Position numbers and translations under genes: made by a program. Shown here piece after piece: positions 22,752 through 57,794 of a DNA stretch of 64,000 nucleotides. The stretch's first letter is position 1, and the number at the start of each line of letters is the position of its first letter. The stretch is from an uncultured Verrucomicrobiae bacterium (GTDB lineage Bacteria > Verrucomicrobiota > Verrucomicrobiia > Limisphaerales > Palsa-1400). The stretch lies in contig CAVPOM010000004.1 of the NCBI GenBank assembly GCA_963707025.1, positions 704,001 to 768,000 on the forward strand. Reading direction: 5' to 3'. The notes beneath the pieces were generated by a model. It was given only the letters and a program-made list of their open reading frames with translations. It searched no databases and had not been told where the DNA came from.

Positions 22752-22837
22752 GGCTGATTTCAGTTATTTTCACCTAGTTTCACCTAGTTTCACTTGTTTT
22801 CACCTGGTTTCAGTTCGAGGAGGGGTGGGGGGGGCCT
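22752..22837 (+). repeat. Phased 6 x TTTCA array, copy A
   Basis: TTTCA at 22758, 22768, 22778, 22788, 22798, 22808, then GTTC and G-rich tract ending GGGCC. Confidence 0.9.
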
Positions 22838-39096: not shown

Positions 39097-40680
39097 TCAT
39101 CGATCCTGCTCGCGGTCGAACAGCATCATTTCCGTGAAGGCCCTTTTTGGATACCCGGATCTCGACCACGTATGATTTCGCGTGTTGTAATTCCATCCGC
39201 GTCGCATCAGTTGTTTGGCAAATTCTTCCCGATCCAGATTCAGGCAGCTCAAGGCGCGGCGATGCCACAATTCAATGACCAGCCGGTTGAACAGAGCCTC
39301 GCTGGTAAAACTGCTTGCGTCATTGTTAAGGCAGGCGTCGAAAACCTCCGGGAGAATGCCCGCTGAATCCACCTCCGGAGCGGTATTTGCCGGCATCGCC
39401 GCCTTGGGAACTTTGGCTGGCTTGTAAAAGGTTAAAATCATTTCGCCCGCCAGCACGCGCGCGGAATTTTTCTTTTTGTGCATGGACCAAATCACGTCGC
39501 CGGTTTGCGTGATGGCCGCTTTGAGTTCTCCGCCGCATTCATTGGCCGTTTCCAGAATGGTGGCAAAGTAGCTCGTATCCCAGTGTTGAAAGACAATTGA
39601 AAACCAACGGTCCGGTTTCAAAAGGCGGAAAGAAGTTGTGATGCTGCGCGCCAGGCTTTGTTTGTAATGGTCTTCCGAGTGGCCGCGCTCGCCGCCCACA
39701 ATGGTTTCCTGTTCGCGTGTTTCCTCGTCGATCGCAAAGCCAAGCCAGTGGTTCCACAAAATGGAAAGGTCCAGATAACTGATGAACGCTCCGTAGGGCG
39801 GATCGGTAAAGATGTAATCCATGCTGCCGGGCTTGATCACTTTATCCAGCGTCGCCGCGTCGTGCGCCAGCACCCGGAAATTCCTTTGGCTGTCCAGTTC
39901 GAGCGAGCCGCCGGATGGCTGCTCCCGATAATCCCGCAGTCGCAACACTTCCTCTTTTGCCGCCAGCACGTTCAGGAAGCGGCCTTGAAAGGTTTCCCAA
40001 ATCGGAAGCTCCACGGTGTGCGCCGCCAGTTTGTAGCGATAGATGCTGAAAATGCTCGAACCGCCCCGGCTTTCCGCCCGGCCTTTGGCGGAAAGAAACG
40101 TTTTGTTCAGTTTGGCCACGGAGGCTGACCAGGCCAAAAGCAGCAAATCGCGGACTATTCCTGCTTCGCGCTCAATGCCTTGTTTCATCAAGGCGACTCC
40201 GGCCAACTGGCGCGGCGTGAACATGTCATAAAAATAATCCGCGTCCGAATTGCGCGGCAACCGGATGTTTTCCGGCAGGGGCAGTTTTTTCAGCCACTGC
40301 CTGGCCACCGCCTCGTCTTTTTCGATGGCGTGAATTTCCTGCGCGCAACTCCGCTCCACGCGCTCAAAAGCCTGGCGCAGCGGCGCGGTGGAAACCAGGG
40401 TGGTATCGGCGATGTTCCGGGCGATGAAGTTCGCAAACGGATTCAGGTCGTTTTGGATCGCGCACCGGCCCAGTAAAAATGCCTCAATCGCCGTCACGCC
40501 CGTGCCGCCGAACGGGTCGAGCACCACGTCGCCTTCTTCCGAATACCGTTCCAAGTAAGCGCGCACTACGTTGGCGGGTCGCCGGGTGAAATAAGGATGC
40601 ACCCCGTAATGACGCGCATCTTCCTGTCTGGCGGCAGGAATGGCTTCGAGAATCGGTTCGATACAGGCGCGAGAATTCAT
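39097..40680 (-). CDS. Amino (N6-A/N4-C) DNA methyltransferase
   Basis: HPYFTR, motif I VLDPFGGTG, motif IV IFTDPPY. Confidence 0.92.
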   Translation of the reverse strand: MNSRACIEPILEAIPAARQEDARHYGVHPYFTRRPANVVRAYLERYSEEGDVVLDPFGGTGVTAIEAFLLGRCAIQNDLNPFANFIARNIADTTLVSTAPLRQAFERVERSCAQEIHAIEKDEAVARQWLKKLPLPENIRLPRNSDADYFYDMFTPRQLAGVALMKQGIEREAGIVRDLLLLAWSASVAKLNKTFLSAKGRAESRGGSSIFSIYRYKLAAHTVELPIWETFQGRFLNVLAAKEEVLRLRDYREQPSGGSLELDSQRNFRVLAHDAATLDKVIKPGSMDYIFTDPPYGAFISYLDLSILWNHWLGFAIDEETREQETIVGGERGHSEDHYKQSLARSITTSFRLLKPDRWFSIVFQHWDTSYFATILETANECGGELKAAITQTGDVIWSMHKKKNSARVLAGEMILTFYKPAKVPKAAMPANTAPEVDSAGILPEVFDACLNNDASSFTSEALFNRLVIELWHRRALSCLNLDREEFAKQLMRRGWNYNTRNHTWSRSGYPKRAFTEMMLFDREQDR

Positions 40681-41531: not shown

Positions 41532-41986
41532 AATCTGTTCTGCAACCCGGCAGGCAGCAAAAACACCGGGCGGGCGCGGTTCCAGTTCAACATCTTGCGC
41601 CAGATTTGCAACTACATTCGGCTGCGCCCTAATGGGATCGTGGCGGTGCCGCCGCGGTGCGCCGGTTTGGGGCCGCCGGCCCGACCCTTCAACCAAGTGG
41701 GACAAGAGGCTGAATTGCGCCTCCCCCTCATCGCTCTTGTAAAACTCCTCCGGGTATCTTGCCCCTTTGCGCGGCCATGACGCGCCCTCCGTGGCCCGCG
41801 CCCTGCTTTTCAAAAATCCAAGAATATCCCTCGACAAATGGCGCTTAAATGTTAATCTTTCTTAAGTGATGAGGGCAAGGCAGAAGAACAAGGCGGGCGG
41901 GCTTGGGTCGGGCCAAAGCGCAAGCTTCCGGCAGTCCCCGGACAAGTTGGGCTGCGCCCTTGTCTATAACGATAAAGAGACCGACG

Positions 41987-42013
41987 GTCAAACCCGGTCA
42001 AACCGAGTCAAAC
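41987..42013 (+). repeat. 3 x GTCAAAC in 10-bp phase (intron 5' exon)
   Basis: GTCAAAC at 41987, 41997 and 42007. Confidence 0.9.
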
Positions 42014-42014
42014 G

Positions 42015-43971
42015 TTGCGCCAGTGAAGTTGGTTGGAACGCGGGTGAAAGTCCCGCCCGTCGAATTAGGCTGTTCACGACGGAACACGACCTCAACAGCG
42101 CCGCCGCGAGGCGGGGTTGGAAGCTGAGGGAGATGAACAGACGGGCCGTAATGAAAATGAACCACATCCAATGAGCCTCGATAAGTTTAGAACCGGAGAC
42201 AAGCCGAGCCGCTGTTTGACCGGCGAAGGCCGCAGGGAGGAGGCAGGGCAACAGTCAGAGCCTTCTCAACGCTCCGGCGGGGTCGGCGTGGACGGCACGT
42301 CTGGAAGTTCAACCAAGGTAAGCTGGGAGAACTCCGGCGGCGGGCGGCCAGCCCAACCGCCCGCGCAAGCTGGCAAGACCAGTCAGGCGAGCGGCCCTGC
42401 CGGAGAAGTCGGAGTTCCTCATAGTAGCGTGGACTTGTTTGCGCTCCAGGCGGATTTCCGCCGGGAGTTGCGCGAGCGAACGCAAAGGGGGAACACTTGC
42501 TCAATGCGTGGAGGCGAAGCGAAGGATGCGGGGATGGCCGGGGCGACCCGGATAGCAACCCCGGAGAAAGTTCGGCAGCTTCAAATCGCGCTCTATCGGA
42601 AAGCCAAAGCAGAGCCGAAGTATCGGTTCTGGAGCCTGTATGGGGAATTGCTGCGCAAGGACGTGCTCGAAACCGCCTTGGCAGCGCAACAGCGCAACGG
42701 CGGGGCCGCGGGAGTGGACGGACAGAGTATGGAGTCCATCACCGCCGACCCGGCCCTGCGCCAGCAATGGCTCGACCGCCTGCAAGCAGAACTCAAAGCC
42801 AAGACGTATCGGGCCAGCCCGGTGCGGCGGGTGATGATTCCCAAGAGCAGCGGAGGGGAACGGCCGTTGGGCATCCCGACGGTCAAGGACCGGGTGGTGC
42901 AAACGGCGGTGTATCTGGTGCTGATGCCGATCTTGGAGGCGGACTTTCATCCGCGCTCCTACGGCTTTCGGCCCAAACGCCGGGCACACCAAGCCATTGC
43001 GGAAATCCAACAAGCAGTGCAGCAAGGCTACGTGGAAATCATCAACGCGGACCTGACGAAATATTTCGACACGATTCCGCACCGGGAACTGATGAAGGCC
43101 GTGGCCCGGCGGGTCAGCGACGGCAGCGTGCTGCGGCTCCTCAAGAGCTGGCTGCGCGCCCCGGTCGCGGAGGAAGACCAGGACGGCACCAAGCGAGTGA
43201 TCCCCAACCGGCGCGGCACGCCGCAAGGCGGGGTCATCTCGCCGCTGCTGGCCAACCTCTACCTCAACCCGCTGGATCACGGGGTGAACGAGAAAACCTC
43301 CGGCCAAGCCCGCATGGTGCGCTACGCCGATGACTTTGTCATCGCGTGCGCGGCGGGGTGCGGCGGAGGGCTGATAGCGCGGCTCAAGAAATGGCTTCGA
43401 GCCAAAGGGCTGACCCTCAACGAAGTCAAAACCCGAATTGTGAACATTCGCAAGGAAGGGATCAACTTCCTGGGCTTCAACCTGACCTGGCGCAAGTCCT
43501 TTGGAGGGCGCGGCTACCTGCACGTTCAACCCAGCCAGAAAAGCCGGGGGCCCTGCGCGAGAAACTGGGCGGCATCCTCAACCACTGGACGCAGGGGCGT
43601 CCGATACAGGAGGTGGTCAAAGAGGTCAACCAAGTCTTGCGCGGATGGGCGGGCTACTTCCACTACGGCAACAGCGTCTCGGTGATGAACCGGATGAAAC
43701 ACTACAGCCAAAACCGCTTTCGGCGCTGGCTGTGGCGCAAACACGGTTGCCGCCGCAGCCTGTGGGAACACTACGTTCCCGAGCAGTTGCACCAGCGTTA
43801 TGGACTCTATGAACTGCCGACCACGGCGAAGTGGAAGGCGGCCCGATGAATGAGTTCGGAGAGCCGAATATGGGAAATCCGTCCGTTCGGTTCGATGAGG
43901 GGCGAAGTGGCAGCGCGAGACTGACAACTGCGGTCAGTTCAATCCGCCTCCTTCCACTTCGCCTACTCTAC
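42015..43971 (+). mobile_element. Group II intron, full length (5' boundary +/-1 nt)
   Basis: 5' TTGCG; EBS1 stem-loop 42208-42224; domain V GAGCCGAATATGGGAAATCCGTCCGTTCGGTTC at 43861-43893; domain VI ending CCTACTCTAC; internal RT. Confidence 0.92.
42534..43849 (+). CDS. ltrA: Group II intron reverse transcriptase/maturase without endonuclease domain; one G missing in G-run 43546-43550
   Basis: GAAGVDG, RPLGIPTVKDRVVQ, SYGFRP, GTPQGGVISPLLAN, RYADD, FLGF, maturase NQVLRGWAGYF. Confidence 0.93.
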
Positions 43972-44049
43972 CACAAAAAGCAGGCTTGACCGAAAAACTG
44001 ACCCAAAAACCCCACGCGGCCCAGTGCGTCCCAATTGTCTCGAGTTTTT

Positions 44050-44127
44050 TTTCAGGTAATTTCACCTAATTTCACCTAGTTTCACTTGTTTTCAATTAAT
44101 TTCAGTTCCAGAGGGCAGGGGGGGGCC
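44050..44127 (+). repeat. Phased 6 x TTTCA array, copy B
   Basis: TTTCA at 44050, 44060, 44070, 44080, 44090, 44100, then GTTC and G-rich tract ending GGGCC. Confidence 0.9.
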
Positions 44128-44236
44128 GGCGCCGCAAACCGGCTCGCGCCCCCTCATGCGGCCTTTTTGGCGCGTAGCGACGCCGCGACAAATCCACCCT
44201 CCTTCGCCGGGGCCGCGGAGGGCAAACCATCCGAAT

Positions 44237-45165
44237 TCATTTCTCCCCTCCTGCCAGGACCGTTTCAAAATGCGGGGGCTGCTCTTCGCGCGCCACCACG
44301 GTCACTTCGATTTTGCGAAGCCGGCCGCCTCCAGCCAGTTGTGCAAATCGCTTTCCGCAAATCCGAGCCAGCGGTCGCCGTGCAGTTCGCGCGCCTGCTC
44401 AAAGTTATGCTGCAACAGGTCCAGAATCATGATTTGTCCGCGCGGACGCAAAATGGCATGCGCGCCGCGGATGGCCTGGGGCGGACTGGCGGCGTGATGG
44501 AGGGCCTGGCTCAAAATCACCAGGTCCACGCTGGCCGGCTCGATGGGCGGATTTTCCAGATCGCCCAGGCGGAACTCGAGGTTTTTAATTTTATTCTTGC
44601 GGGCTTTGTTGGCGCCAAAGGCCACCATTTTTTCCGAGTTGTCCACCGCAATGACGTGTTTGGCCCGCCGCGCCAGCAATTCGCTGAGCAGTCCTTCGCC
44701 CGAACCCAGATCGGCCACCACCACCGGCGGGAGGATGCGCAGGAGCAATTGCCCGAAAGCCTGCCAGGAGCGGCCCGGCCCGTAGCTGCGATCAAACCGC
44801 CCGGCCACCTGGTTGAAATAAAGCTGGGCCTGCTGAGCCCGCCGTCCCACAATGCGCTTCAAGTTGATCTGGTCGGTGGCATAATCGGCCAGTTCCGCCG
44901 CGCCGCGCACGGCCAACTGGATGAATTCCCGCGCCGTGCCTTCCGCCTGCCCCGCGATTTTGTAAAAAGTCCGTTTGCCCTCCCGCCGGGATTCCAGCAG
45001 GCCGGATTCCTGCAACAATCCCAGGTGCGTGGAGATGCGGGACTGGCCCAGGCGGGTGATTTCCTGCAACTCGTTGACCGACAGCTCGTTGCGTTCCAAG
45101 AGCGCCATGATGCGCAGCCGCGTCGGGTCCGACAACGCCCGCAATGATTTTAAAATGGCTGACAT
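44237..45165 (-). CDS. sahR: ArsR HTH + SAM-binding methyltransferase-fold regulator (SahR-like); one base missing near 44317
   Basis: ALSDPTRLRI...QSRISTHL; VADLGSGEG; corrected end FRKIEVTVVARE...LAGGEK; divergent from metK-ahcY. Confidence 0.8.
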
Positions 45166-56685: not shown

Positions 56686-56773
56686 AGGCCCTCCCCGGGG
56701 GGGTCGGGAACTGAAACCAGGTGAAATTAGGTGAAACCAGGTGAAATTAGGTGAAACGGAATTGAAATCAGCC
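56686..56773 (-). repeat. Phased 6 x TTTCA array, copy C
   Basis: TGAAA at 56712, 56722, 56732, 56742, 56752, 56763; minus strand reads GGCTGATTTCA...TTTCAGTTC...GGGCCTG. Confidence 0.9.
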
Positions 56774-57414: not shown

Positions 57415-57594
57415 ATAGATCATGGATGGCTTTGCCATCCCGCCGTAGCCAGCGCTGGGAAGCTCGTGAAATTCGAGCACGGTTGCGCCACTGTGACGGG
57501 TTACAATCTTCCAGGGCCACTGGTTCCGCCAAACGGAGCCGGGAAGGCGGGAGTGCGGTCTGAAACCCGAAAGTCAGGACATCAGCATGGCTAT
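57415..57594 (+). ncRNA. Cobalamin riboswitch
   Basis: GGGAA, GTGAAATTC loop, GCCACTGTGA, second GCCACTG...GGGAAGG, B12-box-like AGTCAGGACATCAGC, closing stem ATAG..CATG/CATG..CTAT. Confidence 0.85.
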
Positions 57595-57794
57595 ACGCTC
57601 GTCGGGTCCCGCCCTCGCGGGACCGCTTCTCCGTCAAAGAGAAGGATGAGGCCAGCCCGCGGCAACTGTTTTGCCGCGGATCGTGAATGCCTTCATTCTC
57701 CGTTTTGCCGGAGCCTGAAGGTTTTTTGTTTTCTGGCTCCGGCACTGGTCTCCAAACCGTTCCCCCCGACCGGAACATTGTTGAAAGACCAGTT

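Follow-up and report, generated by a model that had tools for sequence, protein, structure and literature searches.

An endonuclease-less group II intron with 16 copies in a Verrucomicrobiae genome, very probably homing into short tandem ten-base repeats

The stretch of DNA analysed here (the window; 64,000 nucleotides, positions 704,001 to 768,000 of contig CAVPOM010000004.1, assembly GCA_963707025.1) belongs to an uncultured Verrucomicrobiae bacterium of the lineage Limisphaerales, Palsa-1400, and carries a group II intron located directly behind a short array of ten-base repeats (Table 1). The genome is a draft of 18 contigs (6.96 Mb, completeness 88%). Besides the match to the domain I core, the Rfam model RF00029 for domains V and VI (D5/D6) spans 43859-43971 with 42.6 bits (cut-off 40). 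The fold of D5 and the long D6 (approx 75 nt) has a z of -3.25 and shows a bulged A at 43965, in agreement with an earlier note on this DNA, which had described an extended domain VI. In a family search of 61 genomes (G000 included), 10 gave a match at E <= 1e-60; in two genomes, G014 and G020, the D6 helix is maintained with changed sequence. A core of domains I to IV, D5, D6 with its bulged A, a protein with reverse transcriptase (RT) and maturase, and the pairing of exon-binding site 1 (EBS1) with intron-binding site 1 (IBS1) are all present as in a group II intron; the 5' motif is not.

Table 1. Features of the intron locus and its surroundings, in positions of the window
Feature	Position	Strand	Basis or remark
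Group II intron, 1958 nt	42014..43971	+	GUUGCG to CUCUAC; Rfam match, intron-less paralogue, ends common to 16 copies
Non-canonical 5' end GUUGCG, one U longer than GUGCG	42014..42019	+	
Domain I core	42047..42292	+	Rfam RF02005 (group-II-D1D4-6), 62.2 bits vs cut-off 49
One-sided internal loop AUAAGUUUAGAA, proposed EBS2 GUUU 42185-42188	42181..42192	+	Rfam structure line, covariation
EBS1 hairpin, stem GCCG/CGGC, loop CUGUUUGAC; EBS1 GUUUGAC 42214-42220	42208..42224	+	Rfam alignment, covariation
Intron-encoded protein gene, RT and maturase (X), no endonuclease	42504..43849	+	-1 frameshift in G-run 43546-43550
Domain V	43861..43893	+	RF00029 alignment, fold
Extended domain VI, bulged A at 43965, 3' end ...CUAC	43894..43971	+	Fold
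Decamer array, 3 GTCAAAC units at 10-bp period (41987-41993, 41997-42003, 42007-42013), 5' exon end	41987..42013	+	
3' exon start: C +1 (IBS3), A +2, inverted unit GGCTTGACCG at 43983-43992	43972..43992	+	
TTTCA array, TTTCACCTNN-type decamers, 6 units	44050..44104	+	Separate family, not the intron's target
Further TTTCACCTNN array	22758-22812	+	
Further TTTCACCTNN array	56712-56767	-	
Module of ~420 nt (41755-42013 and 43972-44130)	41755..44130	+	Recurs intron-less at C14:259980-260404, 92% and 84% identity
DNA methylase, N6/N4	39097-40680	-	Pfam PF01555
Open reading frame (ORF) of 386 aa	40677-41837	-	Low GC content at third codon positions (GC3), no Pfam family
ArsR-methyltransferase gene	ends 44302	-	

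The ends of the intron are defined by its insertion sites. In the intron-less paralogue of the locus (C14:259980-260404), GTCAAAC is directly followed by CACAAAAAGCAGG, and three internal insertions of sister copies leave a regular 10-bp period around them only when the insert is taken to extend from G to ...CUAC. It follows that G42014 is base 1 of the intron, that the exon ends in GTCAAAC and that the intron starts with GUUGCG. The earlier note had correctly recognised the three GTCAAAC in 10-bp phase and had added the next G to the exon, which the paralogue assigns to the intron. The sole ambiguity of the boundaries is a leftward shift by one or two bases (AC), never a rightward one. The 3' end AC fits the group II boundary motif AY, and the 5' end departs by one extra base from GUGYG, a start treated as near-universal in a 2015 review (PMC4424553). 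GTTGCG is found in all 16 copies of the genome, in G014, G019, G020, L090 and L078 (66% protein identity) and in all closer relatives, and the canonical GTGCG in the relatives L026, L027 and L089 (protein identity 45-63%). Since GTTGCG reaches as far as L078 and GTGCG lies beyond, the extra U is a trait of the intron's lineage. A non-canonical UUGCG start had been proposed earlier and is borne out, as GUUGCG, by the paralogue and the 16 copies.

The 16 full-length copies are near-identical (7 of 1959 alignment columns vary), and a search of the genome with RF02005 recovers these and no others. Their flanks differ from one another. Fourteen copies follow (GGTCAAACCN)2-4, i.e. arrays of GGTCAAACC decamers. 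Another one follows GCCAAAT inside a AAATCAAGCC-type array, with six EBS1 pairs and four pairs of the second exon-binding site (EBS2) possible, so that 15 of the 16 are located inside decamer arrays; the last one follows a lone GTCAAAC with CAAAC five bases upstream. The first base of the 3' exon (+1) is C throughout, and +1/+2 is CA in 15 copies. Of the 14 array insertions, 11 are found after the last direct unit and three are internal. The non-array copy (C11:46161-48119) has the same orientation as a small ORF (140 codons, GC3 0.76) into which it is inserted 9 codons ahead of the stop; expression of the last residues of that protein would need splicing.

GTCAAAC was counted 1443 times genome-wide, compared to approx 594 expected from composition. 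A pattern search returned 67 arrays, 39 of them canonical (units CCGGTCAAACC, at least three units or an inverted unit), of which 14 are occupied by the intron and 25 are empty. The usual build is (GGTCAAACC)2-6, then CA and a T-rich stretch of approx 8 nt, one or two inverted units (CYTTGACC) and often (TCACTCCA)n. The latter, an 8-bp tandem repeat, follows the inverted unit(s) for example in the arrays at C15:60777, C12:24423 and C14:44559; judged from such sites, the gene leaders look as if assembled from several short-period repeat modules. According to a crude gene finder, a co-oriented ORF of at least 150 aa with high GC3 is present within 1 kb of 26 canonical arrays, and none near the other 13, this locus included. 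Pfam families were assigned to 24 of the 26 downstream proteins (among them PPDK, PDH E1, HypF, ThiF/MoeB, Dus, PrmC, FtsJ, MgsA, ABC-F and several glycosidases). These are mutually unrelated, by which a single regulon behind the arrays is ruled out.

In the hypF leader, the orthologous place of relatives holds decamer arrays without intron, in the dialects GGTCAAGCC x3 (G003, L101) and CAATCAGAC.../TAATCAAACC (G005, L106). Together with the empty arrays of this genome, these intron-less leader arrays indicate that the arrays predate the intron. As the position of the hypF array is conserved and all of its units are changed, the arrays evolve in concert. The A3 tracts phased at a 10-bp period might reflect curved DNA or an array of protein-binding sites. 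Two GGTCAAACC arrays approx 110 bp apart were found at five loci (C7:414046-414181, C7:461946-462073, C7:204396-204523, C13:76138-76264 and C18:613633-613759), where a conserved hairpin segment (GTGAGGG...CCCTCAC) and a possible short ORF running into the second array are located between the two; in three of the five, the second array contains the intron.

EBS1 (GUUUGAC) is the exact 7-bp complement of IBS1, the GTCAAAC at 42007-42013 (-7 to -1). The stem-loop GCCG-CTGTTTGAC-CGGC in which it is displayed had been proposed in the earlier note and was found at the same place (42208-42224), aligned by RF02005 to a hairpin of the model. For EBS2 (GUUU), a possible partner is AAAC in the unit before (proposed IBS2, 42000-42003, -14 to -11). 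EBS1 would thus read the last repeat unit, and EBS2 is predicted to pair with the unit before; on these pairings, the intron would have both the EBS1-IBS1 and the EBS2-IBS2 contacts of endonuclease-less IIB-like homing introns. The genome contains 535 GTCAAAC-C sites. All 15 introns at such sites are found among the 81 with AAA[C/G] 2-5 nt upstream, and none among the other 454 (Fisher p 1.5e-13). Among the 81 two-motif sites, 14 of 50 with A at +2 are occupied, compared to 1 of 31 without it (p 0.0066). Since the last unit of an array is followed by CAT..., the preference for A at +2 accounts for the preference for this unit.

The third contact was assigned differently before: the G following the EBS1 loop had been taken as EBS3, pairing with the first C of the 3' exon. 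This G is part of the stem CGGC (42221-42224), paired with GCCG (42208-42211). The two strands of this stem covary in relatives (L078 and L034, GUCC/GGAC; L089, GCGG/CCGC), and the proposed EBS3 is therefore paired and unlikely to be free. IBS3 (+1) is T in two of nine copies of relatives with a readable 3' junction. On the side of the 3' exon, the inverted variant of the unit described earlier is present (GGCTTGACCG at 43983-43992), and the first TTTCA was found at 44050, 79 bases past the intron and within the 80 bp previously given.

In relatives of the same bacterial family, where the pairings were read by hand, the loops change together with the exons. G019 and three copies of G014 have EBS1 GUUUGAU and exons ending in AUCAAAC. 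In G020, EBS1 is GUGUGAC and the exon ends in GUCGCAC in two of three copies. EBS2 changes as well, with CUUU in G014 (upstream unit AAAG(U)) and GUGC in G020 (upstream unit GCAC), and three to five EBS2 pairs are possible in nine of the ten readable exons of relatives. L090, from another genome (83% protein identity), is located in the same GGTCAAACC array type. Pairing by these two loops is retained in more distant relatives, which have targets of their own: in L078, EBS1 CUGCCUG is found with CGGGCAG and EBS2 GCGGCA with UGCCGU; in L034, GGUGCAU and UUCAC fit GTGAAATGCAC; and in L089, AACUUUA fits UAGGGUU.

The outcomes named in the earlier note as speaking against a homing intron of this kind, i.e. 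homologous copies in unrelated sequence, a GTCAAAC repeat unique to the locus or a fold placing EBS1 elsewhere, do not apply: 15 of 16 copies are located in decamer arrays, 39 canonical arrays are present, and the Rfam model aligns its hairpin to the proposed EBS1. The core of the earlier proposal, an exon-binding loop set to a phased intergenic repeat of many copies, is upheld by these 15 copies, the 25 empty arrays and the covariation of EBS1 and EBS2. The tie to the TTTCA array does not go beyond co-occurrence. TTTCACCTNN arrays form a separate decamer family (35 genome-wide, four to seven units, strict 10-bp period), of which 8, including the pair in the window, have a canonical GTCAAAC array on the same strand at a distance of up to approx 230 nt, the intron not being counted; they co-occur with the target in these 8 of 35 only and are not themselves the target.

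The intron-encoded protein (P0001, 448 aa, translated from an intact sister copy) was matched in Pfam by RVT_1 (2.1e-38) and GIIM (1e-14) only, and reached 382 bits with TIGR04416 (cut-off 300). It ends 32 residues past GIIM, with no further Pfam domain and no DNA-binding/endonuclease (D/En) domain in this part, in line with the earlier statement that an endonuclease domain is lacking. In this copy the G-run at 43546-43550 has five G compared to six in the intact copies, which splits RT from X. Environmental runs were covered as contigs only, which show no strand, level or splicing and represent sequences of relatives, not of this organism. The DNA-run contigs over the G-run have the intact (longer) length, including a collapsed intron contig of the best DNA run (X1). 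With this length in the DNA runs and a homopolymer at the site, an error of the assembly could account for the frameshift. Should it be genuine, the copy would have to rely on protein supplied by the seven copies with an intact gene; such complementation is documented among RmInt1 relatives (PMC4615759). The ribozyme of this copy has no private change and shows the majority state at the four variable columns that lie outside the protein gene or are the indel, except for the G-run.

Two of the RNA-library runs (X15 and X16) contain contigs, 90-95% alike, in which AATCAAGG-type decamer arrays stop exactly at 42014. A different contig of X15 has a variant EBS1, CCUUAAU, to which an exon end on a further contig of that run (AUUAAGG) is complementary. 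In X20, an RNA-library contig (depth 4.6) contains the intron 3' end (43971), ten letters resembling one decamer and the intron 5' end (42014). By its order of parts it looks like two related introns one repeat unit apart; alternatively, it may be an intron circle with extra letters. In RNA-library contigs of relatives (90-95% likeness) from X18, with 40 letters on the shorter side, and X15, with 26, the D3 end/D4 start (42314) is joined to 43856 before D5. The protein gene is missing from them, and derivatives of the intron lineage without an ORF are suggested by this. A joint skipping 42012-43969 in one contig of the DNA run X3 (27 letters on the shorter side) may stem from the C14 paralogue. 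Weak joints in RNA runs, where one side had less than 30 letters, were set aside (X17, 42004 to 44050; X15, 42315 to 43952).

Observed directly are the intron with its exact boundaries, the set of copies and their sites, two loops that are complementary to the repeats and change with the repeat variant in relatives, and the empty arrays, both in this genome and at an orthologous place in relatives. Very probably, these are the traces of an endonuclease-less group II intron which spreads, now in 16 copies, by retrohoming into short tandem ten-base repeats. By analogy with known introns, the excised intron RNA bound to the RT/maturase would reverse-splice into DNA after GTCAAAC and before C, and, with no endonuclease, copying would make use of a nascent strand at a replication fork. 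A favoured A at +2 would steer the insertion to the 3' edge of the array. The arrays might serve the intron as a safe harbour.

The inverted unit at the end of most canonical arrays, the position of 11 of the 14 array insertions behind the last direct unit and the best match of the protein to a solved structure (the class C (IIC) reverse transcriptase GsI-IIC, 1.7e-60) would also be compatible with a targeting guided by structure as in IIC introns, in which a DNA hairpin of the last direct and the inverted unit (GGTCAA...TTGACC, approx 10 nt downstream) is recognised and the match to EBS1 and EBS2 is secondary. This is very unlikely, since three insertions are internal to arrays, the C11 copy has no inverted unit nearby and the insertion point is located inside the would-be loop, not after the stem. 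Moreover, A at +2 accounts for the excess of insertions at the last unit, and the structure match is not a placement because the PDB holds few intron classes. A 7-nt IBS1 and a covarying EBS2 are present, in contrast to the IIC introns, which insert after terminator or attC motifs in the account of PMC4424553.

It is hardly plausible, too, that the copies were spread by duplication or recombination of larger segments already containing the intron. Such events would account for the families of 5' flanks (in three trios and one pair of copies, 40-70 nt ahead of the array are common to the members) and for the duplicated module of approx 420 nt at C14, but the C14 duplicate is devoid of the intron, copies with a common 5' flank differ in their 3' flanks, the genes downstream of the copies are unrelated and the intron ends are exact in all 16. 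That the intron itself made the arrays, by target duplication or by seeding of repeats, would fit the co-occurrence of arrays and introns in the same bacterial family. This is barely conceivable with 25 of 39 canonical arrays empty and with orthologous hypF leader arrays in G003 and G005 that contain no intron. Furthermore, with the intron taken out, the array is regular in its period and contains no additional duplicated unit, and group II intron retrohoming generates no target duplication.

Several observations weigh against retrohoming into the decamer arrays or against activity of this copy. The EBS2 pairing in the window comprises just 4 bp, with a spacer of 2-5 nt between IBS2 and IBS1, and the EBS3 position was not located in the intron. 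Four copies of G014 have EBS1 GGUUGAU. The exon could be read in three of these (two with AUCAAGC, one with AUCAAAC) and is mismatched at -2; the fourth extends past the end of its contig. One G014 copy (L039) is located in non-repeat sequence with no EBS2 match. The protein gene is intact in 7 of 16 copies only; the other nine, including this one, have the shorter G-run and the frameshift. A replication-strand bias of the insertions (lagging-strand template) is suggestive only: in a weak test by local GC skew on the 18-contig draft, the G-rich strand holds 9 of 14 occupied compared to 7 of 25 empty arrays (p 0.043). Both neighbouring genes of this copy are encoded on the minus strand, and it has no co-oriented gene downstream, in contrast to most copies. 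A promoter consensus scan of 41600-44400 returned no promoter-like site (and four terminator-like sites compared to 3.7 expected), and no spliced RNA of this locus was seen among the contigs of eight runs.

Among known systems, the introns RmInt1, RmInt2 and Sr.md.I1 of Sinorhizobium (class D), as described in PMC4615759, share with this intron a protein with RT and maturase and no endonuclease, the reading of the target by EBS1 and EBS2 (in Sinorhizobium also by EBS3) with a short IBS2-IBS1 linker, where four EBS2 pairs can suffice, and a homing site of many copies (insertion sequence elements in their case). A lagging-strand template bias would be expected. Unlike these introns, the one described here has a tandem decamer array as target, with EBS1 and EBS2 on successive units, a linker of 2-5 nt and the 5' end GUUGCG. 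The intron proteins of S. meliloti plasmids are 33-36% identical to its protein; the nearest plasmid-borne ones (45-47%) are found in Bradyrhizobium, Rhizobium and on plasmid 1 of Nitrobacter hamburgensis. The latter protein (45% identity, 309 bits) belongs to an intron with a ribozyme of RF02003, not RF02005, and a GUGCG start. It may or may not be one of Ni.ha.I1 and Ni.ha.I2; these introns of class F sensu lato/g3 (PMC3552965) likewise have a protein without endonuclease. The class of the intron is settled neither by the solved-structure match nor by the plasmid matches.

Class C introns, in the account of PMC4424553, also combine a short motif of many copies outside genes with the absence of an endonuclease. 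In contrast to them, no DNA stem-loop of a terminator or attC site is involved here, and the reading is done by a 7-nt IBS1 and a covarying EBS2. The mechanism corresponds to that of endonuclease-less IIB-type homing introns such as RmInt1 and RmInt2. It is not IIC-like, given the presence of EBS2 and the lack of any need for a stem-loop. Nested introns of Methanosarcina acetivorans, described in the same review text, similarly have a self-renewing homing site which spares host genes, located inside other introns there and in tandem repeats of the host here. Introns with a shifted 5' site (fungal rRNA IIB1 introns and C.te.I1, likewise in PMC4424553) also depart from the GUGYG start, but their splice sites are displaced upstream by 1-33 nt and they are devoid of EBS2 or branch-site features by loss, whereas EBS1, EBS2 and the bulged A are present in this intron, the lineage of which is evidently mobile. 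The association of a Pseudomonas putida intron with repetitive extragenic palindromic (REP) sequences was rejected as a precedent, as it holds for only two of nine copies in the table of PMC1525189.

The module of approx 420 nt around the insertion is non-coding and contains a leader, the GTCAAAC array, the inverted unit, the TTTCA array and a G-rich end; it may be transcribed as a small unit or be mobile as a cassette. A TTGACA-16-TAATCT box is visible by eye upstream of the array in the C14 paralogue, where the window reads TCGACA. The paralogue is the sole empty counterpart of this locus: none was found at the orthologous place in the same-genus genomes G001-G005, which align only from the ArsR-methyltransferase gene inward and differ each in the intergenic part. 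The 386-aa ORF follows the methylase gene and is possibly its restriction partner; the region has no counterpart here in the same-genus genomes. Elsewhere in the window, a cobalamin riboswitch (RF00174, 69.2 bits) was identified at 57415-57604 (+). A remnant of an unrelated group II intron protein (C15:110667-111665, minus strand, 45% identity, one in-frame TAG) adjoins a TTTCA array (C15:110242-110297).

Three target specificities of bacterial group II introns are listed in the 2015 review (PMC4424553), namely unique homing sites, terminators and attC sites. In the literature covered, which does not extend to subscription journals, no paper was found on group II introns homing into tandem decamers. 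The finding itself is real and has good support; very probably, an ordinary, base-pair-guided retrohoming is aimed at an unusual, periodic target of many copies in a lineage with a 5' end longer by one base. A reading of successive units by two guide loops would give dozens of equivalent sites in a genome (81 in this one) and a tolerance of register. This bears on how introns without endonuclease proliferate without hitting genes, and periodic DNA recognised by a pair of guides would have a natural example here. One additional base at the 5' end evidently does not preclude mobility. The gene leaders of these Verrucomicrobia also deserve attention for their several families of phased decamer arrays. 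Tentatively, and with some doubt, the lineage may have become specialised for, and have co-diversified with, families of promoter-proximal ten-base tandem arrays, EBS1 and EBS2 being retuned in each genome (GTCAAAC, ATCAAAC/AAAGT, GTCGCAC, ATTAAGG) and insertion at the 3' edge leaving a landing pad that is renewed by slippage and cannot be saturated. If this is true, the intron lineage would be a natural reporter of a repeat class which perhaps represents curved DNA or protein-binding arrays in gene leaders.

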